Assembly: GCA_903958395.1 (NCBI GenBank)
Contig: CAJBSZ010000008.1
Coordinates: forward strand, 2,394-66,393
DNA: 64,000 nt
Source: an uncultured bacterium
GTDB lineage: Bacteria; Verrucomicrobiota; Kiritimatiellia; CAIKKV01; CAITUY01
Direction of reading: 5' to 3'
Shown here: piece by piece, positions 795 to 43,047 of the stretch
How the letters are laid out: the number at the start of each line of letters is the position of its first letter
Numbering within the stretch: position 1 is the first letter of the stretch
Notes under the pieces: generated by a model
The model's database searches: none
Seen by the model: the letters and a program-made list of their open reading frames with translations, nothing else
What the model was told of the DNA's origin: nothing
Translations under genes and position numbers: made by a program

Positions 795-3218
795 ATGAAG
801 CCTCATAATAGGCAGAATCGCCGCTCGAAAACAATAGGTTTACGGATAAATATGGAGACAGGACACAGCGACATTATCATGGATCCAATCCATGAGACCA
901 CCTGCTTGAAATGCCATCACCTGATGGATGTCTCCAGTCTTGCCGCGTTTGTTGAAATCGCCTGTCCCGAGTGCGGAACGACACAGCATGTTCCGGCGAA
1001 AATGGGGGCGTTCCTCCTGATTGACCTGTTGGGCAAAGGGGGGATGGGTGCCGTCTATCGCGGGCGGGACACCGGGCTCGATCGCTGGGTGGCGGTCAAG
1101 GTCATGCAATCTTCCTTCGGGGGAAATCCCGAATTCGTGGAAACGTTCCGGCGGGAAGCCCAGGCCGCGGCCGCGTTGAATCATCCCAATATCGTCCAGA
1201 TTTACTCATTCGGTGTGTCCCACGGGCAGCCCTACATGGTGATGGAGCTTTTGGAAGGGGGGCGGATGGATCAGATGATTGCCGGGGGCGAACTTCTGAA
1301 CGAAGCCCTGGTTCTCAAGATGGCACTGGATGTGGCGGAGGGATTGAATGCCGCAGCGGCCATCGGGCTGATTCACGGGGATGTCAAGCCGGAGAACATC
1401 CTGCTGGACAACAACGGGATTGCCAAGGTGGTGGATTTTGGTTTGGCGCGGTTCAAGGAAAGCAGTGAGGGCGGAACCGCGAAGGGAATCTGGGGCACGC
1501 CCTATTATATCGCGCCCGAAAAACTCAGGGGGCATGTGTCGGATGCCCGCTCCGACATTTACAGTTTGGGCGGAACCTTGTTTCATGCCCTGACCCTGCA
1601 GCCTCCGTTTGACGGGGCAACCCCGATGGATGTGGTCAAGGCGCGGCTTAAGGGGCCCGCTCCGCGCTTGAGTTCATTGCGGCCGTTTGTCAATCCCGAG
1701 CTTGAGGCTCTGGTCGGGCGTATGCTGGAGGCCGATCCCCTGAGGCGCTATCCGAATTATGCGTCCGTCGTGGCGGATATGAGAAGGATTCTTCCCTCCT
1801 TGAAGCCGCCGCCGGCGGAATCACACGGGCAGTTGTCGAAAAAAGGCGGAAAAATTATTTTAACCAGGAAGAAAGGGGCGGCTCTTGTCAGTGCCCCCTC
1901 GGCTTCGTCAGGCGGGGTGGAGGTGGCGATCCCTTCGACTAGTTCGGTTGAGGAGGATGCGGTTAGGCCCCCGCGCTCATTCCGCAAGGCGAAAATCGCC
2001 GTGGGAGTGGTCCTGGGGCTCCTGATTTTGGCGGGGGTGATCGGCGGCTGTGTGGCCAGTCAGAAAAAACGCACGGCCGAAGAGAAGGAAAAGGCGCTGG
2101 CGGCCCAATATCGGAAAAAAGCCAGCCAGATTCTGGCCGACCTGCAAGGGGTTTCTGGGGAGGTCTCGAACTACACCGTCCGGGCCGGCGGGTGGGTTTC
2201 CAACGCCACGGCGGTGGTGACGCTAATAATGGCGGGGACCGAGATTCCTTCGGATCCGGACAGAACCAATGCGCTGGCGGATCTGGAACTGGTGCAGCGG
2301 TATGCCACCGGAACACTGGCTTCCGTAACCGCAGAACTGAAAGGGATGTCCACACTGGTGGAGTCCAACCGGACCACGATGCTGTCCCTTTCGAATTCAG
2401 TGGCTGTGCATGAGAAGTTGATGCTGTTGACGAATGTTCCGGCACGATGTTCCGAACTGGTTCAATCCATTTCAGAGGGAACTGACAGGGCCCGGAAAGC
2501 GGTGGACCGGTTCGATATCCTGAAAAAGAAGCTTGATCGTGATAGGGTCGCGAATCAGGCGGCTGCGGAGCGGGCTGCCCTTGAGAAAGCGGAGGCGGAT
2601 AAGGTCGAGGCTGAACGGCGTGCGAAGGAACAGGCGGAGGCTGAAAAAAAGGCAGGAATCCAGGCTGAGCTCGACCTGATTGACGCCACCCGGAAGGAAA
2701 GCGGATCCCTGATCCAGCAGCATCTGTTCAGGGAGGCGCAAGTCAAGATCGAACAGTGCGTGAAGGGCCTGAAGACGGATGAGGGTAAGGCCGCCGGCAA
2801 GCAGGCGGTCAAGGCGTACCAGTTTTTGGCCGAGCTCAAAACGCTGATCATTGAGAGCGTCAAGGCTGATGTGGCGAGCAATCCCGGCAGTGGGTATGCC
2901 TTTGGCTGGCTGGGCGCCAAGGATATTCTGGGAGCAGACGCCGAGAAGATCATCATCCGGGGCGGGCAGGTTTCCTGGATCACGCTGCCCCCCGCGCAGA
3001 TGATGCGTTTTGTGCAGCGGTATGTTGAGAACGGGGATCTGACCAAACGCGAAAAGGGCCAGTACTATTTTGCCGTCGCCTTGTATATTTATGAGGCGAC
3101 CGGACGAAATGAGAAGCATTATGCCCAGGCGGCCAAGTACCTGAATGAGGCGGTTCGATTCCATTCCAGTATTGAAGACCTCGCCAAGTCAGTCCTGCCG
3201 GGCCTGGAATTAAAATAA
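795..3218 (+). CDS. Membrane Ser/Thr protein kinase with N-terminal zinc ribbon, one TM helix and coiled-coil extracytoplasmic C-terminal domain
   Basis: CxxC-x17-CxxC ribbon (CLKCHH...CPECG). Kinase motifs GKGGMGAVYRG, VAVKVM, HGDVKPENILLD, DFGLAR, GTPYYIAPE. TM segment IAVGVVLGLLILAGVIGGCVA. K/E-rich coiled coil. The start may instead be METGHSD at about 852. Confidence 0.85.
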   Translation: MKPHNRQNRRSKTIGLRINMETGHSDIIMDPIHETTCLKCHHLMDVSSLAAFVEIACPECGTTQHVPAKMGAFLLIDLLGKGGMGAVYRGRDTGLDRWVAVKVMQSSFGGNPEFVETFRREAQAAAALNHPNIVQIYSFGVSHGQPYMVMELLEGGRMDQMIAGGELLNEALVLKMALDVAEGLNAAAAIGLIHGDVKPENILLDNNGIAKVVDFGLARFKESSEGGTAKGIWGTPYYIAPEKLRGHVSDARSDIYSLGGTLFHALTLQPPFDGATPMDVVKARLKGPAPRLSSLRPFVNPELEALVGRMLEADPLRRYPNYASVVADMRRILPSLKPPPAESHGQLSKKGGKIILTRKKGAALVSAPSASSGGVEVAIPSTSSVEEDAVRPPRSFRKAKIAVGVVLGLLILAGVIGGCVASQKKRTAEEKEKALAAQYRKKASQILADLQGVSGEVSNYTVRAGGWVSNATAVVTLIMAGTEIPSDPDRTNALADLELVQRYATGTLASVTAELKGMSTLVESNRTTMLSLSNSVAVHEKLMLLTNVPARCSELVQSISEGTDRARKAVDRFDILKKKLDRDRVANQAAAERAALEKAEADKVEAERRAKEQAEAEKKAGIQAELDLIDATRKESGSLIQQHLFREAQVKIEQCVKGLKTDEGKAAGKQAVKAYQFLAELKTLIIESVKADVASNPGSGYAFGWLGAKDILGADAEKIIIRGGQVSWITLPPAQMMRFVQRYVENGDLTKREKGQYYFAVALYIYEATGRNEKHYAQAAKYLNEAVRFHSSIEDLAKSVLPGLELK

Positions 3219-4531: not shown

Positions 4532-4566
4532 TGAGAAAGAGTGGCGCAGGGCGGGCGTTTTTTGCT

Positions 4567-4594
4567 TTGACCTTAAAGCGTCTCTCTCTATACT
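4567..4594 (+). promoter_or_regulatory. Candidate sigma70-like promoter (TTGACC-N16-TATACT) for the 4651 gene
   Basis: TTGACC at about 4567-4572 and TATACT at about 4589-4594. This leaves a 5' UTR of about 50 nt with a GGAG RBS before the ATG at 4651. Confidence 0.35.
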
Positions 4595-4650: not shown

Positions 4651-5292
4651 ATGAAAACCGATTGCATGGCTTGGAAAACGTTGGTTTGTTTGGGGGTGGC
4701 TTGGGTGATGGGCGCTAACCCTGCGCTGGCTCAGGCGATTTCCAGCAGGGGAACGCCTGTCAATGCCGGCAAGTCCGCCCTGGGCGTGGGCGGGGTTATT
4801 CGGTTGAAACAGTTGACGGGCATCGGCCCCCGAAGCGTTCTGAAAAGCCCTGATTCCTCAGGCAATCAACGGGGAGATATACGGGAGTGGGTTGAGCTTG
4901 GGCTCCAATTTGATACCGAACCGGAGTGGCTTGACGAAGTTGTATTTAATTTTTTCGCTCTGTTGAGGAGTCGTGAAACGACCAAGTTCACCCTGCTTAA
5001 AGGGACCGTTACCTATATCGATGTGGCACGCGGCCGGGGTCGTAAGGGGGGCGCTTATATCCGTCCGGCAGCCTTGGCCCGGTTTGGTGATGTGATGGGT
5101 GTGGCCGTGGAGGCCGTGATCAAGGGGGAAGTCGTTGGCTCGCTTTACGAGGGGAAGCTCGGCCCCGGCAAGCCGCTACCCGTGGACTGGTGGAAAAAAC
5201 CAGAGTTGGTTCCCCGGGAAGGGTATGTTATGGACCGGTCGAAAACCCCGTTTGCCCTCATCAACTTTGATGAGTATGAGGCTTTGAAATAG
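4651..5292 (+). CDS. Secreted hypothetical protein (signal peptide MKTDCMAWKTLVCLGVAWVMGANPALAQA)
   Basis: RBS ggag. N-terminal signal peptide with AXA cleavage motif. No recognisable domain. First gene of the pilus-cluster transcription unit. Confidence 0.5.
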   Translation: MKTDCMAWKTLVCLGVAWVMGANPALAQAISSRGTPVNAGKSALGVGGVIRLKQLTGIGPRSVLKSPDSSGNQRGDIREWVELGLQFDTEPEWLDEVVFNFFALLRSRETTKFTLLKGTVTYIDVARGRGRKGGAYIRPAALARFGDVMGVAVEAVIKGEVVGSLYEGKLGPGKPLPVDWWKKPELVPREGYVMDRSKTPFALINFDEYEALK

Positions 5293-5298
5293 GACGCT

Positions 5299-7023
5299 AT
5301 GTTTGGATCAGATCGAATTTTGGCGTTGGACATCGGGAACAGCAAGATTGTACTCGCTGAATTCCGGATCATTGAGGCGACGAGCCTTGAGCTGGTGAAT
5401 TATTCCGTGTCTCCCCTGGGGTTTGACCCCGAGACGACCCTGGATCCATCTGCGTACATCGTTTCGGGGATCCGGGATGCGATGCGGAGCAGTGGTATCC
5501 GGCCGGGTGTCGTGGCCGTTTCGATGTCGGGTCAGTTGGTTTTTCCGCGATATGTCAAGTTGCCTCCGGTTACAGCCGACAAAATCTCGCAGATTGTCAA
5601 ATATGAGGCGCAGCAGAATGTGCCTTTCCCGATGGATGAGGTGGTGTGGGACTACCAGTTGGTGGGGCAGGAGACGGGGGAGCTGAGTGTTCTGCTTGTG
5701 GTGGTCAAGGGCGATCTGGTTAAAAACCTGACCGATTGCGTTGAGGCGGCCGGACTGGATCCGATCCTCGTGGATGTTTCGCCCCTGGCTCTTTACAATG
5801 CCGTGCGTTACAACTATTCCGACCTGCCGGGATGCACCATGATCCTGGATATGGGTGCCCGTTCCACGAATGTGGTGTTTGTCGAAGGCACGAAGATCTT
5901 CAGTCGCAGTATCCCGGTGGCGGGAACGATGATCACCAAGGATGTGATGAAGGAGTTTGAACTTTCCTTCGAAGAGGCCGAACAGCTCAAGGTGGCTCAC
6001 GCGTTTGTGGGGTTTGGTGGCGTGTATGAGGGGCATGAGGTGGGCGTGGCGGATCGCACTTCCAAGATTGTCCGGAATATCATGACCCGCCTGCATGCCG
6101 AGGTGATCCGCACCATCAATTTTTACCGCAGCCAGCAGGGCGGAAGCCAGCCGGGCATGGTGTTGTTGACCGGGGGATGTTCCGTGATCCCGCATGTCAA
6201 CACGTTCCTGAAGGATAAGCTGAAGACCGAGGTTGATTTCCTGAACCCGTTCCGCAATGTGGCGGTCAGTTCCTTGATTGAGTCCGACAAGGTGGCAGCG
6301 AACCTTCATCTGCTCGGCGAAGTGGTGGGGTTGGCGCTGCGGCGTACGCTGTCCTGCCCTGTGGAAATCAATCTGATGCCGCCCGAGCTGGCGGCCCGAA
6401 AGGTGTTGCAGCGTCGTCTTCCGTTCTTTGGCCTGGCGGCTGCGGGACTGGTCTTGACGGTACTCGTGTTTGGGCTGTTCCTGCACCGGATGTCCACCCT
6501 GGCTGAAAAACGGCGGGATATGGTTCAGGGAAAGCTGGCCGCTCTTGAGTCGCCCAATGTCAAACTGGGTGAATTTTCCAAGCAAAAGGAACAGTTGTAC
6601 GCCAAGGCAGCGGACTTGAGTGGGCTGATTTTTTCGCGCACCCGCTGGGTGGTTATGGTGAATGACCTGCACCAACGGCTGGCGCCGGGGATGTGGTTGA
6701 CCAGTGTCAGGCTGATGATCCCCAAGGATGTGAAATCGACGGCGATACGGCTTGAAGTCAGGGGTATGGCGTTTAGTGACAAGGTGAGTAATCAGGCTAT
6801 CACCGAGTATGTGGCGAGCCTGAAGTCCGTCGGATATTTTTCAGATGACCTTCAGATCAAGCGGATCAAGCCCGTGGAAGGGACGGATTTCGCCACGGAA
6901 TTCACGGTTGAAATCGGACTGAATGCAAAGCCGAGTGAACGGACGATCCCTCCGTCGGTCAAGGCGGTTGAGCCGTTGGTTCCCCCCGTCCAAAACGAGA
7001 AGCCCGGCAAGGGGGAGGCATAA
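5299..7023 (+). CDS. pilM: Type IV pilus assembly PilM (actin-like ATPase) fused to PilN-like TM/coiled-coil domain
   Basis: N-terminus ILALDIGNSKIVLAEF... is a PilM/FtsA-like sugar-kinase fold. After about 350 aa comes an INLMPPELAARK motif (PilN INLLP box), then a TM helix LPFFGLAAAGLVLTVLVFGLFL and a periplasmic domain. Confidence 0.75.
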   Translation: MFGSDRILALDIGNSKIVLAEFRIIEATSLELVNYSVSPLGFDPETTLDPSAYIVSGIRDAMRSSGIRPGVVAVSMSGQLVFPRYVKLPPVTADKISQIVKYEAQQNVPFPMDEVVWDYQLVGQETGELSVLLVVVKGDLVKNLTDCVEAAGLDPILVDVSPLALYNAVRYNYSDLPGCTMILDMGARSTNVVFVEGTKIFSRSIPVAGTMITKDVMKEFELSFEEAEQLKVAHAFVGFGGVYEGHEVGVADRTSKIVRNIMTRLHAEVIRTINFYRSQQGGSQPGMVLLTGGCSVIPHVNTFLKDKLKTEVDFLNPFRNVAVSSLIESDKVAANLHLLGEVVGLALRRTLSCPVEINLMPPELAARKVLQRRLPFFGLAAAGLVLTVLVFGLFLHRMSTLAEKRRDMVQGKLAALESPNVKLGEFSKQKEQLYAKAADLSGLIFSRTRWVVMVNDLHQRLAPGMWLTSVRLMIPKDVKSTAIRLEVRGMAFSDKVSNQAITEYVASLKSVGYFSDDLQIKRIKPVEGTDFATEFTVEIGLNAKPSERTIPPSVKAVEPLVPPVQNEKPGKGEA

Positions 7024-7026
7024 CCT

Positions 7027-8004
7027 ATGCAATCTCGGCGAAAAATGATTGTGATTGCGCTGGCGGTGATGTTGAGTCTTTTCTTCCTTGGAGCCGTGGC
7101 ATTGGTAGTTTTGAAATTCATTCATTTTACGGATGCTGAGACGGTATTAAAGGGGGACAAGGCTCGTCTGGAATTCCTGTATGGCCAGAATCCCTTTCCG
7201 TCGGCGGCCAACCTGCACGTGGAACGGGAGAATATCCAGACTATTAAGCAGGAGGTTTCGGATCTTCAGGCGGCGATGGGCGCGGGGCAGATTGAGCCTG
7301 TGGTGCAGAGTCCGGCTCGTTTCATCACGCAATTCTTTGATACGCAGCGTAATTTGCTAGCCAAGGCATCTGCTGCGGGCATTGCCGTTCCCAAGACGTT
7401 TGACTTCGGGTTTGGGCGCCATATGAAGGGCGATCTTCCCGCGCCCCAGGATGTGCCGCGACTGACCCAGCAACTCAAGATTGTCGAGGCGCTCTGTCAG
7501 GCCCTGTATGCCGGAAATATTGCCTCGCTGGATGCCCTTTCGAGACAGGAGTTTGAGGTGGATGCCCTGACGGGCGCCGGGGGCAAGGCCGTGCCTGCCG
7601 CACGCGCGGGGGAGATTGACTTAAAGAACAGCGTAGATGCCGGGGCGGGGCATGTGCCCGAGGGGCAGCTTTACGGCCGATGGCGTTTTTCCGTTCAGTT
7701 CAAGGTGCGTGAAAGCGGCCTGATAAAGATTCTCAACGGACTGGCTAATAGTTCGATCTTCACGGTGGTGACCCGCCTGGAGATCAAGGGTGATGAAAAA
7801 GTGTTTGAGCGCAAGGATGGCGCAGGGGCTGCAGTGAAGGAGACGGCTGTCGGCGAGGCTGAAAAGGAAGCCCCGAAAACGAGGGACTACCGGGTGGTTT
7901 GCGGGCGTGAAAACATGTTGACCATTAAAATGGATGTGGACGTGCTTCAGTTCGCAAAGCCCCAGTCCGCAGCGTCCGAGAAGCAGCCGGGAGGAGTCAA
8001 ATAA
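7027..8004 (+). CDS. PilO-position pilus-associated protein, Amuc_1100-family-like (TM anchor plus coiled coil plus C-terminal globular domain)
   Basis: N-terminal TM helix IVIALAVMLSLFFLGAVALVV. Segments RFSVQFKVRESGLIKILNGLANSSIFTVVTRLEIKGDE and MLTIKMDVDVLQFAKPQ resemble the remembered Amuc_1100 segments IAFQGDRESVLKAMNAITGMQDYLFTVNSIRIRNE and QVFVQVSLNLVHFNQPK. The position between pilMN and the secretin fits. Confidence 0.6.
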   Translation: MQSRRKMIVIALAVMLSLFFLGAVALVVLKFIHFTDAETVLKGDKARLEFLYGQNPFPSAANLHVERENIQTIKQEVSDLQAAMGAGQIEPVVQSPARFITQFFDTQRNLLAKASAAGIAVPKTFDFGFGRHMKGDLPAPQDVPRLTQQLKIVEALCQALYAGNIASLDALSRQEFEVDALTGAGGKAVPAARAGEIDLKNSVDAGAGHVPEGQLYGRWRFSVQFKVRESGLIKILNGLANSSIFTVVTRLEIKGDEKVFERKDGAGAAVKETAVGEAEKEAPKTRDYRVVCGRENMLTIKMDVDVLQFAKPQSAASEKQPGGVK

Positions 8005-9017
8005 TGGTGACCGGCATTGGAGCTTGGTTTAAAAAGAACTACGACCGGATCATCGCGGCCGCGGTTTTGCTCGTCCTTCTGGTCTCGTTAATTGTTCTTG
8101 CTGTCATGGCCCAGGGGCAGAAAACGGCTGAGAAAAATTTCGACAGGGAGTTGGAGGCGTTGAAGCCCGCCTTTGAAAAGGCGCTGCCGCCCGATCGCAC
8201 GATTTTTCGTAGTGCCCTGACGGCGCTGGGTGCACCCTTCCAAAATGAGTCCTGGCCCCTGTCGCTGTTGACCCCGGAGCTTCGTGTTAAGTGCGTGAAC
8301 TGTGACCGGCCGATCCCCTATGCCGCGACCAACTGCACATTTATTGTGTGTGGAGGGGCACAGCCGGTCGATAAAACAGAAATCGTTGACCGGAACCATA
8401 ACGGTATTCCGGATGAATGGGAGGAAAAGCATGGGGTCTTTGCCTTCGACGGGGAGGTCGTCAATACGGATCCCGACAACGATGGATTTACCACGCGTGA
8501 GGAATATGAGTGGAAGACGGATCCCAAGGATGTTGAAAACCATCCTCCCTATCTCGCCAAGATCCGGGTTGCCGAGATCAAGCCTATTCCGTTCCGGATG
8601 ATCTTCAAGGGCGTCAGCAAGGCCGGCACAAACTTGATTTTTCAGATCAACCTCCGCTCGGGTGGCCGAACCTATTGGAAAAAGCTCGGAGAGAAAGCGG
8701 AGGGGGTCACGCTCGATTCCTATGACGAGCATGCGCAGGAGGGCGCCACGCTCACCTTGGGGCACAATGGTAAAAAGATTCCGCTGATCAAGGGGCGGCT
8801 GGTCCCCCGTGATGATTATGAGATCAAGCTGATTTCCCTCATTGATGAGGCGGTTTTCGCGGTCCGCCCGGATGTCGATTTTGATTTGAAGGGCTCCAGC
8901 TACAAGGTCAAAAAAGTTGACACACAAGGGATCCGTGTACTAATACACGACCCTTCCCGTAATCTTGATGTGTGGATTGAGCGCAAAATGTCTGACCCGC
9001 AACCCGTGAAGCAATAG
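8004..9017 (+). CDS. PilP-position membrane-anchored periplasmic protein with Cys cluster and two EF-hand-like Ca-binding loops
   Basis: N-terminal TM helix. CVNCDRPIPYAATNCTFIVCGG. DRNHNGIPDEWE and DPDNDGFTTREE both fit the D-x-[DN]-x-[DN]-G-x5-E pattern. Its start overlaps the upstream gene's stop (ATAATG). Confidence 0.5.
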   Translation: MVTGIGAWFKKNYDRIIAAAVLLVLLVSLIVLAVMAQGQKTAEKNFDRELEALKPAFEKALPPDRTIFRSALTALGAPFQNESWPLSLLTPELRVKCVNCDRPIPYAATNCTFIVCGGAQPVDKTEIVDRNHNGIPDEWEEKHGVFAFDGEVVNTDPDNDGFTTREEYEWKTDPKDVENHPPYLAKIRVAEIKPIPFRMIFKGVSKAGTNLIFQINLRSGGRTYWKKLGEKAEGVTLDSYDEHAQEGATLTLGHNGKKIPLIKGRLVPRDDYEIKLISLIDEAVFAVRPDVDFDLKGSSYKVKKVDTQGIRVLIHDPSRNLDVWIERKMSDPQPVKQ

Positions 9018-9069
9018 GAGTTCAGGGCGATTCAGTCTTTTTTTGTATTGGATATAAGGAGATAACTCT

Positions 9070-12036
9070 ATGAGATTCAACGCTATACTCTGCGTCTTCA
9101 CGGCTGTCCTGGTAAGTTCCATGGTGGGGCATCAGGGTTTTTCACAAGGGCAGGATGCGGGCACTCAAGTTTTGCTTCAGGAGATGAATCAGCCTGCGGG
9201 CGATGCAGGGGCCGCAGCAGCTGTGCCGGGTGATGCCGAGAAAAAGCCGGAGGCTCCGGTTATTGAAGAACTTACGCCAGCGCCCGTTGTGGCCGCTCCG
9301 GTTGTTGAAGAACTTACGCCAGCGCCCGCGCCCGTTGTGGCCGCTCCGGCCATTGAAGAGCTTGCGCCAGCGCCAGCGCCCGTTGTGGCCGCTCCGGCCA
9401 TTGAAGAGCTTGCGCCAGCGCCAGCGCCCGTTGCGGTCGCTCCGGTTGTTGAAGAACTTACGCCAGCGCCAGCCCCCGTTGTGGTCGCTCCGGTTGTTGA
9501 AGTACCGGCGAAGCCGGTTTCGGAGCCCGTTGTCGCCGCTCCGGTGGCTGAGGTGGCGGTTTCTCCTGATGCGGGCGTGAAAAATGCGCTGGAAGCGGCC
9601 ATAAAAAACATGGGGACTGAGGAACGCGTCAAGATTGCGACCACGATGGCGGATCAGGAAGTCGTCCGGCGCAAGGCTCGCGAATTGGATGGACGTCTAG
9701 CCATGGAAAGTGCCGACAAGGCGTTAAAGAATGGGGATTACGCCGCAGCGGGTGACCAGTATAAGATCGCGCTTGCCAAATTGCCGGTGGTTCCCCAGTG
9801 CCTGGCGCTCCGGAATCGCGCTACCGCGCAGATTCCGGAATGTGAATACCAGCTTATCCGGAAAATGGTGAAGGAGGGCAAGGAGGGTGAAGCCGCCCTG
9901 CAGGGGCGTGAGTTCCTCAAGCAGCGCCCCAATAATCCCCGGCTTGCCTCCCTGCTTGACGCGATGAAGAAAAAGGATGAGGCGAGCGCGCCGGAAGCCG
10001 TTGCCGAAGTGAATCCCGGCGAAACGGATGTTGAGAGATATATGAGACTTGGCCGGGAATTCATGATGAAACGCGAGTATGCGGAATCAAGAGCCCGCTT
10101 TGAGTCCGTGCTGGGGCTCGACCCCGATAACCGCGAGGCCATGCGTTATCTGAAGGTTCTTGGCGAGCGGGAATACGGGAACAAGACGGCGGAACGTGAT
10201 GCCACCGCCCGGAAAATGACGGCGGAAGTCCGCGATGCCTGGAATTCAAAATACAAAGTCGTCAAGGGCAAGGAAGCCCCGGGTCCGACGGTGACCACCA
10301 CGCCCAACAATGTTCTTGAAGAAAAAATGAAGAAGATCGTCATTGACGAAATCGAGTTTCGTCAGGCGAATATGCATGATGTTGTGGATTTCCTGAACAA
10401 GCGGAGCCGGGACTGTGACAAGAGCACGGATGATGAGTCCAAGAAGGGGGTCAATATCATCCTCAATCTTGGTCAGGGCGCGGCCGCGGCACCGAAACCG
10501 GCCGCTGCGGCAGGCGGGGATGATATTTTCGGGGCTCCTGCCGAAAAGACGGGCTCTTCGGGGGCGTCCGAGGTGACATTTTCGGCGCGGTACATCACGC
10601 TTTATAATGCCCTTAAAATCATCACCAGTGTGGCCGGACTGAAATGGCGCATGGACGGCGAAGTCGTGATGATTGTGCCTCTGGATTGGTCGCCCGACTC
10701 CATGGAAATGCGCATGTATCCCGTTGAGCCGACCTTTATTGAGCGTGTTCAGCAGGCAGGGACCGCGATGCCGACGGTCAGTCGCATCGGGGGGCGTGAA
10801 AAGGTTTCCCTGGATGCGGGTGCCGGGATCGGGGATGCGGTACCGTCCGACCTCAAGGGGTATTTTTCGAACATGGGCGTCAATTTCCCCAAAGGGTCTT
10901 CCATCACTTATAATTCCGCCATTGGGAAAGTTATTGTGGCCAACACGGCAGATAACTTGATTGTCTTCGAGAGAATTCTTTCCGAATTGAACGTGGTGCC
11001 CAAACAGGTTGAAATTGAGGCGCGCTTTGTCGAGGTCAATGAAACCGACATGTATGAGGCCGGTCTGGAATGGTTGCTGACGGATAATTGGGAGATGATG
11101 GTCAAGAATAACGCGAATCCCTTCGCTCCGATTTCTTCCAGTCCCCGCATTCAGATGAATGCTGGTGCGACAGCCGGCGGGTTGACCCGTGGATTGCGGT
11201 TTTATGGTCCCGATGCCAATGGAAAAGATATTCCGCTTGGAGCTGGAAAGGGATCCTCGGGTGCCCTGGCGAGCATTGCCGGAGTGCTGACCAATCCGGA
11301 TATCACCATGATTCTTCACGCCTTGGAGCAGAATGGGAATGCGGATCTATTATCCGCCCCGAAGGTAACGACTCAATCCGGAAACGAGGCTACCATCAAG
11401 GTGGTGATCGAGTATATCTATCCGAGCTCCTTTCAGATTCAGGGCGGTACGATCGGTCAGAACGGCGGCGGCGGTGGAAACAATCAGGCGAACATGATTC
11501 AGGAAACAACCGTAACTCCCCAGGACTTCACGACCCGCGAGGTGGGCGTTATCCTGAATGTAATGCCGGAAGTTAGTCCGGATGGAAACATGATCAACCT
11601 GACCATGAAGCCCCAGGTGGTTACTGAGCCGATTTGGTACCAGTACGGTTCGACTGTGCGCCGTGCTGACGGTTCTGAGCAGACATTGAATATGCCGCAG
11701 CCCTTCTTTCAAGTTCGTTCGGTTGAGACAAAGATTTCGATCTATGATGGTGCCACCGTGGTCATGGGTGGCCTGATCACCGAGGCGTTGGAAAAGACGA
11801 ACGACAAGATTCCGATTCTGGGCGATATTCCCCTTCTGGGCGCGTTCTTCCGCTCCAAGTCGGAGAAAAGCGTCAAAAAGAATCTGCTGATTTTTGTGAC
11901 CGCCAAACTGGTGGATCCGAGCGGGCAGTTGATCCGGAAGCCGGATCAGGACTCCGTCAAGCCCGGCGCGAAGGATAAACCGTCCGCCCTGGGTGGGGGT
12001 ATGACTGTTCCTGCTGCGATGACGCCCGGTCAATAA
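9070..12036 (+). CDS. pilQ: Secretin (PilQ/GspD family) with N-terminal Ala/Pro-rich tandem-repeat linker
   Basis: RBS aaggag. Signal peptide. C-terminal secretin box VVMGGLI...IPILGDIPLLGAFFRSKSEKSVKKNLLIFVTAKLVD. N0/N1-like region. 988 aa. Confidence 0.85.
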   Translation: MRFNAILCVFTAVLVSSMVGHQGFSQGQDAGTQVLLQEMNQPAGDAGAAAAVPGDAEKKPEAPVIEELTPAPVVAAPVVEELTPAPAPVVAAPAIEELAPAPAPVVAAPAIEELAPAPAPVAVAPVVEELTPAPAPVVVAPVVEVPAKPVSEPVVAAPVAEVAVSPDAGVKNALEAAIKNMGTEERVKIATTMADQEVVRRKARELDGRLAMESADKALKNGDYAAAGDQYKIALAKLPVVPQCLALRNRATAQIPECEYQLIRKMVKEGKEGEAALQGREFLKQRPNNPRLASLLDAMKKKDEASAPEAVAEVNPGETDVERYMRLGREFMMKREYAESRARFESVLGLDPDNREAMRYLKVLGEREYGNKTAERDATARKMTAEVRDAWNSKYKVVKGKEAPGPTVTTTPNNVLEEKMKKIVIDEIEFRQANMHDVVDFLNKRSRDCDKSTDDESKKGVNIILNLGQGAAAAPKPAAAAGGDDIFGAPAEKTGSSGASEVTFSARYITLYNALKIITSVAGLKWRMDGEVVMIVPLDWSPDSMEMRMYPVEPTFIERVQQAGTAMPTVSRIGGREKVSLDAGAGIGDAVPSDLKGYFSNMGVNFPKGSSITYNSAIGKVIVANTADNLIVFERILSELNVVPKQVEIEARFVEVNETDMYEAGLEWLLTDNWEMMVKNNANPFAPISSSPRIQMNAGATAGGLTRGLRFYGPDANGKDIPLGAGKGSSGALASIAGVLTNPDITMILHALEQNGNADLLSAPKVTTQSGNEATIKVVIEYIYPSSFQIQGGTIGQNGGGGGNNQANMIQETTVTPQDFTTREVGVILNVMPEVSPDGNMINLTMKPQVVTEPIWYQYGSTVRRADGSEQTLNMPQPFFQVRSVETKISIYDGATVVMGGLITEALEKTNDKIPILGDIPLLGAFFRSKSEKSVKKNLLIFVTAKLVDPSGQLIRKPDQDSVKPGAKDKPSALGGGMTVPAAMTPGQ
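9256..9505 (+). repeat. About five tandem copies of a 42-48 nt coding repeat (gttgttgaagaacttacgccagcgcc[cgcgcc]cgttgtggccgctccg) inside the secretin gene
   Basis: Directly visible repeated DNA encoding (V/I)EEL(T/A)PAP(AP)VVAAP units. The shadow frames on both strands also show periodic proteins. Confidence 0.8.
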
Positions 12037-14818: not shown

Positions 14819-15758
14819 GGGAACGGGCGTCTCCTTTTGTCTGGGACTCCTTTTTTTAATTTCATCAGCCTGTTCCTGTTTTGCCTCGGTCAGTCTTGAC
14901 GACATTCTGTCCTGTCTGGAAGCCCGGGGTGTCCTGGTTGACCGGTCACAGGCCGTGCGTGGTGGGATCGAGGGTATTCTTAAGTCGATTGATCCCGGTG
15001 CGTTTATCGGGGTGGATAAAACAGTCCCCGAAGCAGGCAAAGAGGTTCCGGGGAAGCCCTCAGTTGCGGCGGTTGAATTGTGGCCGGAGGATATTGCCTA
15101 CTTGAAGATCGAGGGATTGCTCAAGGGGAGCGGGCCTGAGATTTTGGATCATGTCAGGGCACTGGACAGCAAGGCCGGGATCATTTTGGATTTTCGGGGT
15201 GCGGGAGGGCAGGATCTGGATTCCGTTTCTCATCTGGCAGGCATTGGACGTCCTTCCGGGGAGCCTCTGTTTGTTGTAACGGATAATCGGGATAAGCCGA
15301 TTTCGACAAACAGGGTTGAAGCGGCGGTTTCTCTCAAAGCACCGCTGATGGTGCTTGTTGATGACCAGACCCGGCTGGCGGCGGAGGCCCTGGTTGCCCT
15401 GTGGCACGGGCGTCCCGGGATTATGGTGATTGGTTCGGCCACCTCCGGTGAGCTTCGTTTTCGGGAGGCGCTGGCTCTGCCGGACGGCCAGGTCATTACC
15501 CTGACAACCCGGAAACTCCATCTTCTTGAAGCCGTTTCGTATGAAGACTGTGGAATCCGGCCCGATGTGGAAGTGGGTCGTGGCGTGGACGCGGGGAATG
15601 CCATGCTGTCCGCAACCAATTCACCGGCCCGGCCGCTCAGCGTCAAATCGGAGCGGGATCGGGAACTGATGCAGCGGGTGGATCAGGATGCGGCCCTGCG
15701 GCGGGCTACAGACATTCTTCTGGGGCTTCGCGTCTTGAGCGGTTATGGCCAGCGCTAA
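14787..15758 (+). CDS. S41 (C-terminal processing peptidase)-like protein with substituted catalytic dyad; secreted/lipoprotein-like
   Basis: ILDFRGAGGQDL resembles the S41 ILDLRNNPGG motif, and GIRPDVEV resembles GIEPDIEV. The Ser-containing GSASASE box reads DDQTRLAAE, and the Lys box TFGKGS reads SATSGE. The start is ambiguous and overlaps the purE end. Confidence 0.55.
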   Translation: MKSRKNRKKPEGTGVSFCLGLLFLISSACSCFASVSLDDILSCLEARGVLVDRSQAVRGGIEGILKSIDPGAFIGVDKTVPEAGKEVPGKPSVAAVELWPEDIAYLKIEGLLKGSGPEILDHVRALDSKAGIILDFRGAGGQDLDSVSHLAGIGRPSGEPLFVVTDNRDKPISTNRVEAAVSLKAPLMVLVDDQTRLAAEALVALWHGRPGIMVIGSATSGELRFREALALPDGQVITLTTRKLHLLEAVSYEDCGIRPDVEVGRGVDAGNAMLSATNSPARPLSVKSERDRELMQRVDQDAALRRATDILLGLRVLSGYGQR

Positions 15759-16815
15759 ATCCAAAATTCTAGTGGTTAATCCGGTTCATCCGGAACCCGC
15801 TCTTATTTCAGAGGCGACCCGGGCGTTGCGATCCGGCGGCCTGATCATATTGCCGACCGAGACGGTCTATGGGGTTGCCGCCGATCCCGGTGTGGAAGGC
15901 GCCGCTGAACGGATTTATGCCGCCAAGGAACGGGATCGCGGCAAGCCGATTCCCCTGTTGGCGTCCGGACTGGACGCGGTGGAGCAACAAAAGGCAATTT
16001 TTCCTCTCTGGGCGAGACGGTTGGCGAAGCGGTACTGGCCGGGGCCGCTCACTCTCGTTCTAAAATGTGGCGTGCGTACGGAGGGCTTTCGAGTTCCTGA
16101 TCATACCGTGGCGTTGGCTGTTTTAAAGGCGGCTGGAGGCCTCCTGCGGGTTACCAGTGCCAATATCAGCGGAGCGCCTGCGGCACGGACGGTCACGGCC
16201 GCCCTGGAGGCACTGGGTGACAGCGTGACCCTTGCCCTGGATGCGGGGCAGGCTGGACTGGGCGTGGAAAGTACGGTCGTGGATGCCACCGGGGACGTTC
16301 CCGTAATTCTCCGGCAGGGGGCTCTTCCCCGTGAGACGGTCATGGCGCGGCCTCTGGTTCTTTTTGTCTGTACCGGCAATACCTGCCGCAGTCCCATGGC
16401 GGCGCTTCTGGCGCGGCATTGGCTGGGAAAAAAATCAGAGTGGGAGGTGGCCTCGGCGGGGGTGTCGGCCATTCCCGGCCAGCGGGCCAGTGAAGGCGCG
16501 ATCGAGGTAAGCGCCGAGAAAAACCTGGATCTAGCGGATCACCGTAGCCAGCCTCTGGCACAGGCCCGGATTGACGCTGCCGATCTGGTTGTGGTAATGA
16601 CGGAAGCTCACAAACGCGCGGTAATCCTCCGTTTCCCCGGTGTGGCGGGGAGGGTTGTGATGCTTAATGATTTCAATGCGCGTCATCAGGGGGAGGATGT
16701 TCCGGATCCCTTTGGAATGAAGGTCGATGTCTATCGGACCATTCGCGACGAGATTGAGGCGGCCATGCCGGAATTGGTGATGCATTTGCGTGGATTGTAC
16801 AGATCGGGAAACTGA
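15745..16815 (+). CDS. tsaC: Fusion protein: L-threonylcarbamoyladenylate synthase (TsaC/YrdC/Sua5 domain) plus low-molecular-weight protein phosphatase
   Basis: N-terminal half [11 protein letters not shown]...[17 protein letters not shown] is YrdC-like. C-terminal half [18 protein letters not shown] is the LMW-PTP CX5R P-loop. Confidence 0.8.
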
Positions 16816-16835
16816 ACGCAGGAAGGATTTTGATT

Positions 16836-18518
16836 ATGAGAATGGCGATTGGTGCGGATCACGGCGGATTTGAACTCAAGGAAGCCCTGAAAAAGGTCAT
16901 GAAGAAGCAGGGTATCGTTGTCGAGGATGTCGGATGCGACAGCGTAGAAGCCGTGGACTATCCCGATTACGCCCGCATGGTGGCCGAGATGGTTTCGGAG
17001 GGACTTGTGGCCCAGGGGGTGCTGATCTGCCGGACAGGGATCGGCATGAGTATGGCTGCCAATAAATATCCGCGGGTGCGCGCCGCCTTGTGTCTGACGC
17101 CGGAAATGGCGCAGGCGACCCGGCTTCATAATGATGCGAATGTGCTGGTTCTGGGGAGCGATCTGGTGAAGCCGGCTCAGGCGGAATCCATTTTCTCGGC
17201 CTGGCTCAAGCAGCCGTTCGCGAATGAGGATCGGCATCAGCGACGCGTCGACAAGATTGGCGCCATGGGCGGCGTGGCCGTGGAAGTGGCCTCAGTGTCG
17301 GCCGTGGATCCTGAGATCTACAACGCCATCAAGCATGAGGAAGAGCGCGAGCTCAGGACAATAGACCTGATCGCCTCCGAGAATTACACCAGTCGGGCCA
17401 TTCGCGAGGCGCAGGGCTCCGTGATGACCAATAAGTACGCCGAGGGCTACCCCGGGAAACGCTATTATGCCGGGTGTGAGTTTGTGGATGTGGCCGAACA
17501 GCTCGCTATCGACCGGGCCAAGGCCTTGTTCGGAGCCGAACACGCCAATGTGCAACCCCATTGCGGCAGTTCCGCCAATATGGCGGTCTATTTTTCGGCT
17601 CTGCAGGCGGGGGATACCATTCTGGCCATGAGTCTCGCCCATGGCGGCCACCTGACGCACGGCCACAAGGTCAATTTCTCCGGCCGGTTTTTCAAGATTG
17701 TACCTTACGGGGTCAATCAAAAAACAGAAATGATCGACTATGATGAGCTCGCGGCCCTTGCGGCTCAGAGCAAGCCGAAACTGGTTGTGGCCGGTGCGAG
17801 CGCCTATCCGCGTGTCCTGGACTTCAAGCGGTTGCGCGAAATCGCCGACAGCGTGGGGGCCATGCTTATGGTGGATATGGCCCACATTGCGGGCCTGATT
17901 GCCGCGGGCGTGCATCCCAGTCCGGTTCCCTACGCCGATTTTGTTACTACGACCACGCATAAAACCCTTCGTGGCCCGCGTAGCGGCATGGTGCTTTGCA
18001 AGGCCAAATACGCCCAGGAGATTGATAAGCAGGTTTTTCCCGGGCTTCAGGGCGGCCCCCTGATGCACACCATTGCCGCCAAGGCAATCTGCTTCAAGGA
18101 GGCCATGGCGCCTGAGTTCAAGGTGTACCAGAAGCAGGTGGTGAAGAATGCCCAGGTGCTGGCGGCCTATCTGGCCAAGCACGGCATGCGGATTGTGTCG
18201 GGCGGGACGGATAACCATCTTATGCTGGTGGATCTGACCCCGCTCGGGACGACTGGCAAGGATGCGTCCTGCGCCCTGGAGAAGGCCGGAATTATTGTTA
18301 ACAAGAATGCGATTCCGTTTGATACCCGCCCGCCGGCCGTGACATCCGGGGTGCGTATCGGTACACCGGCCGTCACCACCCGTGGCATGAAGGAAGCCGA
18401 GATGGAACGGCTCGGTGGCTGGATTGTGGACGCGGTCAAGGTTCAGGCCGATGAGGCGGCTCTGGCCCGGATCAAGGCGGAAGTGGTGGCAACAGCGGTA
18501 AAGTTCTCGATTCCCTGA
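16836..18518 (+). CDS. glyA: Fusion protein: ribose-5-phosphate isomerase B (RpiB/LacAB) plus serine hydroxymethyltransferase
   Basis: [15 protein letters not shown]...[15 protein letters not shown]...RHQRRVDKI is Rpi[11 protein letters not shown]...[20 protein letters not shown]...NVQPH and the PLP-lysine region [11 protein letters not shown] are GlyA. RBS ggaagg. The listed ORF begins with TTG, so the start was moved to the ATG. Confidence 0.85.
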
Positions 18519-31510: not shown

Positions 31511-32860
31511 TTACACCCTCCGTTTCATGGGGTTAATCAGACTGGACACGTCGCTGTCCGGCCCCTTGCGGGCAAATTTCATCAGAAGATAGATATCGAT
31601 GGCGCCCAATAGGCCGTAGAGCAGGACGAACCCCACCAGCGAGCCGATGACCTGTCCGACGGTGATGGACTTTGAAACGCCGTCTGCGGTTTTCATGATA
31701 CCGTAGACGATCCATGGCTGGCGTCCCATTTCCGCCACGATCCAGCCGAACTGGTTGGCCAGGTAGGGCAGGGGGATGGTGAACACCAGTAATTTAAGAA
31801 ACAACGGATACTGCTCCAGGAGGTCGAATCGTGACAGCAGCACGGCCAGAAAGGCCAGTAGTGAGAAAAGCATGCCGAGGCCGATCATGAGCCTGAAGCT
31901 TAGGAAAACCGGCATTACGGGTGGGCGCTCGTCCTTGGGGAAGTCTTTTAAGCCCTTGATTTCGCCATCCAGGGAGTGGGTGGCCAGAAGACTCAGGAGG
32001 CTGGGTAATTTGATGAGCTCAATATAATTCCGCTCGTTGTCCGTATCCGGGAGCTGCAGGAGGCTGATCCCGACATTCTTCTGGGTGTCCCAAAGCGCTT
32101 CCATGGCGGCCAGTTTAGCCGGCTGAGTTTTCCCAACTTCCACGGCAGAGATATCACCGGTAAGGCCGCACAGGATCACGGCAACCAGGCCGAAAAGGGC
32201 AGCCATCTTGAAGGAGGCTTTGAAGAAGGTGGTTTCATTCTTGCGGAGCAGGTGCCAGGCGGAGATGCCGAGGACAAAGAAGGCGGCCACGACATAGGCC
32301 GAACTGATCTGGTGTGCAAACTTGAGCCAGCCATTCGGGTTAAAGGTCACAGCCAGAAAGTCCACCATTTCAGCGCGTCCGTTCCGGAGCACATAGCCGA
32401 CGGGATGCTGCATCCAGCCATTGGCAAGCAGGATCCAGAGTCCTGACAGATTGGTCGCAAAGGCCACCAAACAGATGGACACCGCATGGGCTTTCCGGGA
32501 GATCTTGTTCCAGCCGAAAACCCAGACGCCGATGAAAACCGATTCCAGGAAGAAGGATGACGTGGCTTCAATGGCCAGCGGAGCCCCGAAGATATCGCCG
32601 ACATAGCGGGAATATTCGGCCCAGTTCATGCCAAACTGGAATTCCATCGTGATGCCGGTGACAACGCCCAGGGCGAAATTGATGAGAAACAGCTTGCCCC
32701 AGAACTTGGTCATCCTGAGGTAGAGTTCATTGCCCGTGCGGGCATACTTGACTTCCATGGTCGCTACCAGGACCGATAATCCCAGTGTCAGCGGAACGAA
32801 AATAAAATGAAAGGCACAGGTCAAGGCGAACTGCAACCGGCTCAAAATGACAACATCCAT
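31511..32860 (-). CDS. cydA: Cytochrome bd ubiquinol oxidase subunit I
   Basis: LSRLQFALTCAFHFIFVPLTLGL...FWGKLFLINFALGVVTGITMEFQFGMNW, and a Q-loop region. Confidence 0.9.
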   Translation of the reverse strand: MDVVILSRLQFALTCAFHFIFVPLTLGLSVLVATMEVKYARTGNELYLRMTKFWGKLFLINFALGVVTGITMEFQFGMNWAEYSRYVGDIFGAPLAIEATSSFFLESVFIGVWVFGWNKISRKAHAVSICLVAFATNLSGLWILLANGWMQHPVGYVLRNGRAEMVDFLAVTFNPNGWLKFAHQISSAYVVAAFFVLGISAWHLLRKNETTFFKASFKMAALFGLVAVILCGLTGDISAVEVGKTQPAKLAAMEALWDTQKNVGISLLQLPDTDNERNYIELIKLPSLLSLLATHSLDGEIKGLKDFPKDERPPVMPVFLSFRLMIGLGMLFSLLAFLAVLLSRFDLLEQYPLFLKLLVFTIPLPYLANQFGWIVAEMGRQPWIVYGIMKTADGVSKSITVGQVIGSLVGFVLLYGLLGAIDIYLLMKFARKGPDSDVSSLINPMKRRV

Positions 32861-32870
32861 GGCTATCTCC

Positions 32871-34007
32871 TTATGTTTCCACCACCAACACTTCGCCCTC
32901 CCTGAGGATGACTTGGGACAGGGTAATTCCGAGTTCGGTTTCGTAGCGTTTCACCAGGCGCAGTTCCGCTTCTGTCATCAGGGAAATGGCGTGACCCCGG
33001 GCGCCGGCGCGGGCGGTGCGGCCCACGCGGTGGAGGTAGGCTTTACTCTCGGTGGGGACATCCACATTGAAGATGTGGGTGACGTCCGCGATGTCCAGGC
33101 CCCGGGCGGCGATATCCGAGGCAATCAGGATCCGGGTGTCGCCCTTTCGGAAATCGTCCATGGCCTTTTTCCGCTCACTCTTGTCATAGGCGCCGTGGAG
33201 GTCGGAGGCAGGCAGTTTATGAAAGGCCAGTTTGCCTGCAATCAGTTCGGCTTTTTCGTTCCGGTGGACAAAGACGATGGCCCGCTCCGGATTCAGCGCG
33301 TGAATCAGCTTGCGCAGCAACTCCGGTTTGTCCCGCTCCTCGCACACGAGGTAGTGGTGTTCGATATTGGGGTTCACGGGCGCGGCTCCGGCGCGGATCA
33401 TAATGAGATCCTCGGTCAGGGTGTTGGCGGCCGCCGTCGCTGTGGTGTGCTCGGTGGCGGAAACAAAAATAACCTGGCGGGTCCGGGGCGTGGAATAGAG
33501 GATGTTTCGGACGGAGACCAGCGAGTCATCGGACAGCAGCCGGTCGGCCTCGTCGACCACCACGCTCCGCACGGCCTGGGGCTTGAGTTTTTTCATGATG
33601 ATCAGGTCGCGCACTCGGCCGGGTGAGCCGATGACCAGGTGCGGTTTCTTTTTCAACTTCTCCAGTTGACGGGGAATGGCGGTGCCGCCGATGAGGAGGA
33701 CGGTGCGGATGGGGAGGCCCGAATTCTGAACGAGGGTTCCGGCGACGCGCTGGATCTGGATGGCGAGTTCATGGGTGGGTGCAAGGATCATGGCCTGGAG
33801 TTCGGAAACGGCGGGGTCGATCCGGCAGAAGAGGGGAAGCAGGTAGGCCAGCGTTTTTCCGGTTCCGGTCTCGGAATTCAGATAGGCGTTTTTGCCGGCA
33901 AGCAAGTCCGGCAATGCCGCACTCTGGATGGGCATAGGCTCAGTAATGTTCTCTTTGGCCAAGGCGTCCACCAGCACCGGCAGAATTCCCAATTCGGTAA
34001 AAGTCAT
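32871..34007 (-). CDS. DEAD-box ATP-dependent RNA helicase
   Basis: Q-motif region, Walker A ETGTGKTLAY, VVDEADRLL, SAT and HRVGRTARAG. Confidence 0.85.
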   Translation of the reverse strand: MTFTELGILPVLVDALAKENITEPMPIQSAALPDLLAGKNAYLNSETGTGKTLAYLLPLFCRIDPAVSELQAMILAPTHELAIQIQRVAGTLVQNSGLPIRTVLLIGGTAIPRQLEKLKKKPHLVIGSPGRVRDLIIMKKLKPQAVRSVVVDEADRLLSDDSLVSVRNILYSTPRTRQVIFVSATEHTTATAAANTLTEDLIMIRAGAAPVNPNIEHHYLVCEERDKPELLRKLIHALNPERAIVFVHRNEKAELIAGKLAFHKLPASDLHGAYDKSERKKAMDDFRKGDTRILIASDIAARGLDIADVTHIFNVDVPTESKAYLHRVGRTARAGARGHAISLMTEAELRLVKRYETELGITLSQVILREGEVLVVET

Positions 34008-34076
34008 AATCGATTCCTTTTGAATGGGGGGACTATAGCAGAAGAAGGGATTTTTCCACAGTATTCCCGTAATCGT

Positions 34077-35210
34077 CTATCTGAGCTTCCCGAGTTGGCG
34101 GCGGGCGAAGAGGATATCGACGCGGGCGAGAATGAAATGGGAGACGCGCTCCATGAATTTCTCCCAGAGGGGTCGGGTTCGGGGCCAGGTGGAGCGGTTG
34201 ATGGATTGGCAATGGGCCAGGTGGTCATTGAAAATCTGGTGCGCCTCATCAGCCAGTCGCCGGTCATCAATCCGGACAAGACACTCGTAATTGATGTTCA
34301 GGCTGCGGGTGTCGAGGTTGGCGGAGCCGACATAGACCACATGGTCGGCGATGATCAGCTTGGTGTGCAGGATCTGTGCGTCATACTCGGCAATCCGTAT
34401 TCCCGCCCGGAGCAGCCGGTGATACAGGGCGCGACCGGCGAAGCGTGCCAGTTTGACATCCGTTTTTCCGGCGGTGATGAGGGTGACATCCCGGCCCCGG
34501 CGGGCGGCCCGGATCAGGGCGCGACGGATCGGGCGTGGCGGAAGGAAGTAGGCGGAGATGATCCGGATAGTGCGGGCCTGTTGAAGGTCGTGAAGCAGGG
34601 TGGCCTTGATGGCGCTTCCGTTCTGGCCGGGGCCACTGGTGAGGAGGGAGGGGCAGAGATGTCCCGGCGGGCAGCGCCGGAACGGGGGCCGCCAGGGAAT
34701 CCGGTGGAGACGGCGGTGCTTGAAGTCCGCCATTCTGAACATCCGGTCAAACGATTCGGCCAGGTCGCCGGCCAGGGGACTGGTCAGCTTCAGTCCGAGA
34801 TCGCGCCATCCGCCGGTGATACCATCCCCGAGCTCGTGGCGGGAGATGTTGAATCCGCTGATGATGGCGGAGGTTCCGTCACAAACCAGCAGTTTCCGGT
34901 GATCCCGGAAGGCGATGCGGCCCAGTGTGAGCGGATTGAAGAACCGTACGATTCCCCCTGCGGCGGCGACGGAGTGCCAGTAGTCAGACGGCAATTCCAG
35001 GGAGCCGAAGGCGTCGAGCAGGATCCTGACGGTGACGCCGCGCCGGGCGGCGGCGCACAGGGCGTTCCGGATGGCGTCGCCGGGCTGGCCCGCCGTGTAG
35101 ATGTACATTTCCAGGCGGATGGAGTCCTTGGCCCGACCGATGTCCGCCTCTACGGTGGCGAAGAAATCGTCTCCGGTTGTAAGCCACTGATAGGGTGTTT
35201 TATTACTCAT
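34077..35210 (-). CDS. Phospholipase D-family protein, cardiolipin synthase ClsB-like (two HKD motifs)
   Basis: FRDHRKLLVCDG and ILHTKLIIADHVVYVGSANLDTRS. Confidence 0.75.
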   Translation of the reverse strand: MSNKTPYQWLTTGDDFFATVEADIGRAKDSIRLEMYIYTAGQPGDAIRNALCAAARRGVTVRILLDAFGSLELPSDYWHSVAAAGGIVRFFNPLTLGRIAFRDHRKLLVCDGTSAIISGFNISRHELGDGITGGWRDLGLKLTSPLAGDLAESFDRMFRMADFKHRRLHRIPWRPPFRRCPPGHLCPSLLTSGPGQNGSAIKATLLHDLQQARTIRIISAYFLPPRPIRRALIRAARRGRDVTLITAGKTDVKLARFAGRALYHRLLRAGIRIAEYDAQILHTKLIIADHVVYVGSANLDTRSLNINYECLVRIDDRRLADEAHQIFNDHLAHCQSINRSTWPRTRPLWEKFMERVSHFILARVDILFARRQLGKLR

Positions 35211-35281
35211 GAATGGGGGAGTCTTTTACCATACCGGGGCCTGAGCGCGAAAGAAAAGTTGAAGCGGCGTAAAAAAGGGGT

Positions 35282-35310
35282 TTGAGAATCACGGGCATCT
35301 CCTTTATACT
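35282..35310 (+). promoter_or_regulatory. Candidate sigma70-like promoter TTGAGA-N17-TATACT implying a leaderless or near-leaderless mRNA for the 35319 gene
   Basis: -35 TTGAGA at about 35282-35287. -10 TATACT at about 35305-35310. The ATG at 35319 is only 8 nt downstream of the -10, and there is no SD. Confidence 0.3.
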
Positions 35311-35318
35311 GCCCGGTT

Positions 35319-40875: not shown

Positions 40876-40891
40876 TAAGGATGAACGAAAC

Positions 40892-41680: not shown

Positions 41681-41727
41681 GGGATTGTGGGATTGATTAT
41701 TAAAGATAACGAAGCAAGGAGAAACGG

Positions 41728-42594: not shown

Positions 42595-42614
42595 TCATCC
42601 GGAGAGTTCCTCGT

Positions 42615-43034: not shown

Positions 43035-43047
43035 GCCGGAGGATAAC

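Follow-up and report, generated by a model that had tools for sequence, protein, structure and literature searches.

The 64-kb stretch of DNA analysed here (the window, meaning the stretch at its full length) comes from an uncultured freshwater bacterium of the Planctomycetes-Verrucomicrobia-Chlamydiae (PVC) group and carries, near its left end, what we call an Akkermansia-type pilus assembly gene cassette. Its five genes most likely (probability roughly 0.8) constitute one operon for that half of a PVC-type type IV pilus-like machine which includes neither ATPase nor pilin, and are orthologous to Amuc_1102-1098 of Akkermansia muciniphila. Sequence profiles or predicted folds established the component identities, hydropathy the membrane segments, and comparison of related loci the conserved gene order. 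Family assignments were judged against curated NCBIfam equivalog cut-offs and domains against Pfam cut-offs. With an upstream stretch included, about 74 kb of the source genome was covered in all. The cassette consists of the following genes.

4651-5292, + strand: Amuc_1102-family (MUL2A-like) protein, 213 aa (NCBIfam, 7DSZ, PF28178)
5299-7023, + strand: PilM-PilN fusion, 574 aa (NCBIfam Amuc_1101_fam, Pfam, PDB profile)
7027-8004, + strand: Amuc_1100-family PilO-equivalent, 325 aa (NCBIfam, fold comparison)
8004-9017, + strand: Amuc_1099-family PilP/GspC-HR-like protein, 337 aa (NCBIfam, fold comparison)
9070-12036, + strand: secretin of the Amuc_1098 family, 988 aa (Pfam Secretin, NCBIfam)

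A preliminary description of this DNA had proposed five co-directional genes with short or overlapping junctions that mirror the Akkermansia Amuc_1098-1102 locus, and both proposals held. The coordinates were exact; the five open reading frames (ORFs) are co-directional, and their junctions measure 6 nt, 3 nt, a 1-nt overlap (TAATG) and 52 nt. NCBIfam returned one Amuc family per gene in the sequence 1102, 1101, 1100, 1099, 1098, so that genes, order, orientation and family matches are the same as in Akkermansia (MUL2, that is Amuc_1099-1102, plus the secretin Amuc_1098). The bit scores stayed under the equivalog cut-off for four of the five proteins, Amuc_1099_fam alone passing. Judged by these scores, the cassette proteins are distant orthologues, family members in a broad sense and not strict equivalogs.

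The second gene encodes a fusion of two components that are separate proteins in the type IVa pilus machine. Its parts are as follows.

5299-6345, + strand: PilM domain, residues 1-349, cytoplasmic actin/FtsA-like fold (Pfam, TIGR01175, 3jc8_Ma)
6364-7023, + strand: PilN module, with EINLMPPE box, membrane segment, helical stretch, periplasmic core and non-conserved tail (profile, hydropathy)

The whole protein matched Amuc_1101_fam (E 8.4e-144, 480.7 bits, cut-off 650). Residues 10-349 matched Pfam PilM_2 (E 4.3e-43, 148 bits, cut-off 27), and the curated TIGR01175 pilM model was passed with 148.5 bits (cut-off 133). Myxococcus xanthus PilM (3jc8_Ma) was matched at E 1e-38 by the single sequence and at E 1e-56, over positions 1-349, by profile A1, which was built from 37 members of the family. 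A match at E 2.8e-25 fell on 2ych, the 'competence protein PilM' of Thermus. For the C-terminal module, the single sequence reached Pfam PilN on residues 453-539 under the cut-off (E 0.012, 16.1 bits, cut-off 22.8), and several homologues carry a precomputed PF05137 match. Profile A1 placed positions 355-490 onto residues 3-132 of M. xanthus PilN (3jc8_Na) with E 2.7e-7. The INLMP box occupies residues 357-361, within EINLMPPE at 356-363, and is followed by one hydrophobic segment at about 375-397, in line with the PilN module proposed in the preliminary description. The match to PilN sets in at its conserved N-terminal motif for PilM binding; in the fusion a whole PilM is thus joined to a whole PilN via about six linker residues.

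The same description had called a fused PilMN uncommon, and this did not survive; in the family it is the rule. The 120 best homologue clusters range from 416 to 601 aa, most of them between 540 and 600 aa, with a query coverage of 94% or more in nearly every case. Because these clusters are near full length, we read the PilM-PilN fusion as the norm in the Amuc_1101-like family. The 608-position model of Akkermansia Amuc_1101 aligns across the INLMP box, membrane segment and helical region to model position 481; PilM plus a membrane-spanning extension is thus common to Amuc_1101 and the window's fusion. In GspL of type II secretion, too, a cytoplasmic domain like PilM continues into a membrane and periplasmic part like PilN; neither Pfam nor NCBIfam returned a GspL family for the window's protein. 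In the literature, our search for natural PilM-PilN fusions turned up only accounts of the PilMNOP complex.

The 7027-8004 product matched Amuc_1100_fam (E 3.6e-27, 95.6 bits, cut-off 180), as the preliminary description had supposed. It has one N-terminal hydrophobic segment as membrane anchor, long helices and an alpha-beta-beta core, and its predicted structure shares the fold of the solved Amuc_1100 core, which has two alpha-beta-beta motifs past long helices. The link to Amuc_1100 was made solely by the NCBIfam model and this fold comparison; PDB sequence searches with the single sequence and with a 46-member profile gave no match, Amuc_1100 included. EpsM, XcpY and PulM were among the structural neighbours of the model, with PilO ranking above GspM. 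Comparison of this profile with the PilMN profile (hhalign) did not find a PilN/PilO-type paralogy signal (E 0.39). The family is large, the profile reaching 2019 representative clusters at E <= 0.001. By this assignment, proteins of the Amuc_1100 family would play a PilO-like part in the inner membrane.

The protein in the PilP position gave the one score over its equivalog cut-off (Amuc_1099_fam, E 3.3e-24, 86 bits, cut-off 50). Hydropathy places one hydrophobic segment at its N-terminus, its C-terminal region is beta-rich, and the protein is predicted to have a GspC-HR/PilP-like fold, in agreement with the role suggested earlier from its position; the top structural match was the GspC HR domain. 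The PDZ domain typical of GspC was not found in Pfam scans of the cassette proteins. Unlike PilP of type IVa pili, the window's equivalent is anchored by a membrane helix and not by lipid, and it carries two motifs that are invariant in an alignment of 47 homologues: four cysteines (C97, C100, C111, C116; residues 97-116, window 8292-8351) and a DxDxD set (D156, D158, D160; residues 156-167, window 8469-8504) with weak TSP3 similarity. The motifs suggest a zinc ribbon and a TSP3-type calcium site in this periplasmic protein, and we know of no zinc or calcium motifs of this kind in canonical PilP and GspC. Searched against the PDB, the family profile gave only insignificant matches, to calcium-binding proteins and a zinc finger. 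It was structure comparison that linked the third and fourth products to PilO and PilP; PDB sequence searches detected no similarity to either canonical protein.

The last gene encodes the 988-aa secretin that the preliminary description had named. Pfam Secretin (PF00263) matched residues 751-949, nt 11320-11916 (E 5.3e-36, 124 bits, cut-off 27.5), and Amuc_1098_fam matched with E 3.7e-134 (448.7 bits, cut-off 750). Canonical secretin models also responded, all under their cut-offs: GspD at E 3.6e-47, MshL at 4.6e-38 and PilQ at 1.9e-37. The protein has an N-terminal hydrophobic leader and a Pro/Ala/Val repeat region; where PilQ has AMIN, Pfam found no AMIN match, and weak sub-threshold tetratricopeptide repeat (TPR) matches occur instead at residues 322-361. 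The match to the Amuc_1098 model begins at residue 186, so that about 185 aa at the N-terminus of the window's secretin lie outside the model and make up an additional segment relative to Akkermansia Amuc_1098. This segment bears a variable 16-aa repeat:

9253-9502, + strand: 48-bp tandem repeat, 5.3 copies, 16-aa unit (V/I)EEL(T/A)PAPAPVV(A/V)AP, in the secretin N-terminus

The window is one unit longer here than the metagenome contigs L001 and L002 (988 versus 972 aa), and only 11 mismatches to L001 occur over the approximately 17.6 kb that flank the repeat. The difference reflects either copy-number variation between populations or assembly collapse.

The first gene product was expected to be secreted, and its N-terminus agrees with this: the 213-aa protein has a hydrophobic leader that ends in ALAQA and has no prepilin leader. 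In about 75 orthologues whose N-termini we read, the leader mostly ends in AQ, without the G-FTLxE prepilin motif. Because of this hydrophobic leader, the protein is probably exported via the Sec pathway. Its family match was modest in score (Amuc_1102_rel, E 8e-11, 41.9 bits, cut-off 55), and the crystal structure of Amuc_1102 (7DSZ) was reached at E 0.0012 by the single sequence and at E 1.9e-18 by a profile of 42 orthologues. Two newer Pfam families, PF28178 and PF28028, have precomputed matches among the cassette proteins, the PF28178 match falling on this one.

We next turn to relatives. ORFs were called in 82 fetched loci and searched by profile with the window's own proteins. In 80 related PVC genome loci the cassette order was kept as far as each contig extends, and the first gene went undetected in four loci. 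A protein identical to the window's Amuc_1100-like product was found on metagenome contigs that reach 92.8 kb. Among genome records, the closest is the metagenome-assembled genome (MAG) ELA450, with 97% PilMN identity, to which contig JBAXMJ010000003.1 belongs; MAGs under the labels Verrucomicrobiota, Kiritimatiellia, PVC group, Victivallales and Lentisphaerae come next. The nearest genomes are uncultured MAGs, mostly from freshwater, labelled Verrucomicrobiota or Kiritimatiellia, and not Akkermansiaceae. At least 587 stretches in a species-representative genome collection encode a PilMN relative, and NCBI has already named MAG proteins as Amuc_1099 or Amuc_1100 family members. A chance or pseudogene origin of the cassette was discarded, all five ORFs being intact, conserved and syntenic. 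Long minus-strand ORFs over the cassette (e.g. 5308-6675, 455 aa) were taken as shadow ORFs of the GC-rich coding strand.

The order of functions along the operon is that of PilM-PilN-PilO-PilP plus PilQ in type IVa pili (Myxococcus xanthus, Pseudomonas aeruginosa; PDB 3jc8), with the Amuc_1102-family first gene as an additional conserved member. If the parts work as they do there, the PilM domain would lie in the cytoplasm, covalently tied to its usual partner PilN, an arrangement shared with GspL. The membrane segment and periplasmic core of the PilN part would pair with the PilO-like Amuc_1100 homologue, and the membrane-anchored Amuc_1099 homologue would reach the periplasmic N-terminal part of the secretin via its PilP/GspC-HR beta domain. 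The secretin would form the outer-membrane pore, and the Amuc_1102-family protein may be a periplasmic or surface accessory or a cargo. Genes 6 kb upstream code for a PilB-like ATPase and a PilC-like platform, which would drive the polymerisation of pilins whose own genes lie elsewhere. These contacts, the coupling to PilB and PilC and the formation of a pilus or pseudopilus are what we infer for the machine, and the cassette may serve attachment or glycan acquisition.

Genes for the motor part are found as follows.

L003 358-3300 (1.4-4.3 kb left of window position 1), also L001 1-1580: PilB-like and PilC-like pair

The pair comprises a 581-aa PilB/GspE-like ATPase with an MshEN N-terminal domain (c-di-GMP-binding type) and a 394-aa PilC/GspF-like platform protein. 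It lies about 6 kb upstream of the cassette and ends 1.4 kb before the window's first base; five unrelated genes stand between (gcvH, pseudouridine synthase, lgt, Ser/Thr kinase and PHP protein). The ATPase scored 631 bits on PilB and 610 bits on GspE, and the GspE and GspF scores were under their equivalog cut-offs. Within the window, Pfam scans of about 49 ORFs found no T2SSE, T2SSF or PilT gene. The preliminary description was right in that no canonical pilin, PilB/PilT or PilC gene was seen in the window, and it overstated the case in calling the machine split across loci, with PilB/PilC-like genes only 1.4 kb past the window edge. That linkage is not conserved in the close relative L004, and may be incidental.

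Neither the window nor L001 showed a canonical prepilin leader when scanned for the motif. Among the 82 loci, nine have canonical prepilin genes (GFTLxE) within 10 kb upstream of the cassette, five of these genes in L058 alone:

L058 4300-8900, L016 6900-7400 and L017 7900-8300, - strand: prepilin genes

Such nearby genes are consistent with a cassette that works with ordinary type IV pilins or pseudopilins. One qualification to the absence of pilus genes comes from elsewhere in the window: a 207-aa protein (37247-37870, - strand) has a GspG/T2SSG globular domain (Pfam E 2e-19) behind an N-terminal CxxC...CxxC zinc-ribbon-like segment and a membrane helix, which stand where a prepilin leader would be. 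The protein resembles a pseudopilin-like domain whose anchor is non-cleavable. Just upstream of its gene, on the opposite strand, neither Pfam nor NCBIfam matched three ORFs in a row (32847-36734, + strand; 259, 548 and 471 aa).

Several results weigh against a pilus-like machine orthologous to the Akkermansia locus. Because four of the five NCBIfam scores are below the equivalog cut-off, the orthology is distant and function may differ, and the 325-aa protein is only 12-16% identical to Amuc_1100 itself. In Akkermansia, Amuc_1100 has been placed on the cell surface (PMC5332112), with which an inner-membrane PilO-like role for its family sits uneasily. Over the 64 kb, neither a pilin nor a prepilin peptidase nor a retraction ATPase came to light, the PilB/PilC linkage is absent in L004 (95% PilMN identity) and in almost all other loci, and GspD and MshL are slightly ahead of PilQ as the canonical match of the secretin.

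The last point leads to the platform and pore of a type II secretion-like system, in which the fusion would be GspL, the Amuc_1100-like protein GspM, the Amuc_1099-like protein GspC and the secretin GspD, and which would export folded periplasmic proteins, possibly the Amuc_1102-family protein. Three observations point in that direction: the fusion reproduces the GspL architecture, the GspC HR domain is the top structural match of the fourth product, and the secretin scores higher on GspD, its best canonical model, than on PilQ. The nearly equal PilB and GspE scores of the upstream ATPase, the GspG-domain protein in the window and the presence of EpsM, XcpY and PulM among the structural neighbours of the Amuc_1100-like model can be read in the same way. 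The sequence signal of the fusion, however, is that of PilM plus PilN and not of GspL: the curated PilM model was passed while no GspL family was returned, and the C-terminal module matches PilN by sequence profile. PilO outranks GspM for the Amuc_1100-like protein, the scores for GspD, GspE and GspF are all under equivalog cut-offs, no PDZ domain was found and no gspGHIJK pseudopilin operon is nearby. On balance we consider a secretion system of this kind unlikely.

A reading that would keep the pilus-like parts but make them a class apart is distinctly unlikely in our estimate. Here the PVC-wide cassette would be a distinct class of type IV filament machine, more than a divergent type IVa pilus, marked by the GspL-like covalent PilM-PilN fusion, a membrane-helix PilP/GspC-HR protein with metal-binding motifs and an invariably linked Amuc_1102-family subunit without a prepilin leader, that subunit being the real substrate or fibre component. 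Were this so, the machine would bypass prepilin peptidase by means of the Amuc_1102-family subunit and would serve glycan capture or uptake, not motility. Service in DNA uptake, as a competence pilus or pseudopilus like those of PilMNOPQ homologues in Thermus and other naturally transformable bacteria, seems to us highly improbable. The PilM domain does match Thermus 2ych, the secretin has weak HofQ matches, and a 5'-3' exonuclease gene follows directly after the secretin; but the 2ych and HofQ matches are weaker than those to type IV pilus and type II secretion proteins and far under cut-offs, ComEA, ComEC and DprA genes were not seen in the window scans, and the flanking genes are housekeeping genes that differ between relatives. 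The Akkermansia locus, moreover, has been tied to mucin growth and not to transformation (PMC13174399, PMC12418764). We retain the type IV pilus-like operon as the preferred reading.

Upstream of this operon, a 119-nt gap separates the PHP-domain gene from the first cassette gene and contains two consensus matches.

4543-4559, + strand: terminator-like hairpin with T-run, just past the PHP gene
4567-4594, + strand: sigma-70-like promoter TTGACC-16-TATACT, 57 nt 5' of the first start codon

Promoter- and terminator-like sites of this kind are no commoner in the gap than in shuffled sequence, and their position alone is suggestive. Two genes upstream of the cassette, ahead of the PHP-domain gene, lies a Ser/Thr protein kinase gene (795-3218, + strand) with a weak N-terminal zinc-ribbon (sub-threshold Pfam). 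Downstream, past the exonuclease gene, two apparent fusions are encoded among housekeeping genes: Sua5/YciO with a low-molecular-weight phosphotyrosine phosphatase (15745-16815, + strand, 356 aa) and RpiB (LacAB_rpiB) with serine hydroxymethyltransferase (16830-18518, + strand, 562 aa). Farther on, a large TPR protein, a YfiO-like protein, ExbB and two ExbD make up a Tol/Ton-like cluster (38035-43461, + strand), and a second ExbB-ExbD pair follows past mutL (46903-47954, + strand).

The kind of system is already known, and the window's locus is a clear further example of it. [quoted passage not shown] The name MUL2 has been given to Amuc_1099-1102, whose synteny is reported to be conserved in Akkermansiaceae and Verrucomicrobiales; in the same paper Amuc_1099 and Amuc_1100 count as uncharacterized, and Amuc_1101 is described as 'a PilM protein' (PMC13174399). 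Our additions are incremental: PilN, PilO-like and PilP/GspC-HR assignments for the middle genes that are more explicit than in the literature cited, the fusion as universal in the family, and the presence of the cassette in Kiritimatiellia, Lentisphaerae and Victivallales-labelled lineages. The Akkermansia cluster has drawn interest since Amuc_1100 is a host-active protein of that organism, and the MUL2 genes are tied to mucin growth. Because the same gene order and the same fusion recur in uncultured lineages with the labels Verrucomicrobiota, Kiritimatiellia, Lentisphaerae and Victivallales, the cassette looks like an old, general envelope machine of PVC bacteria rather than a gut adaptation.

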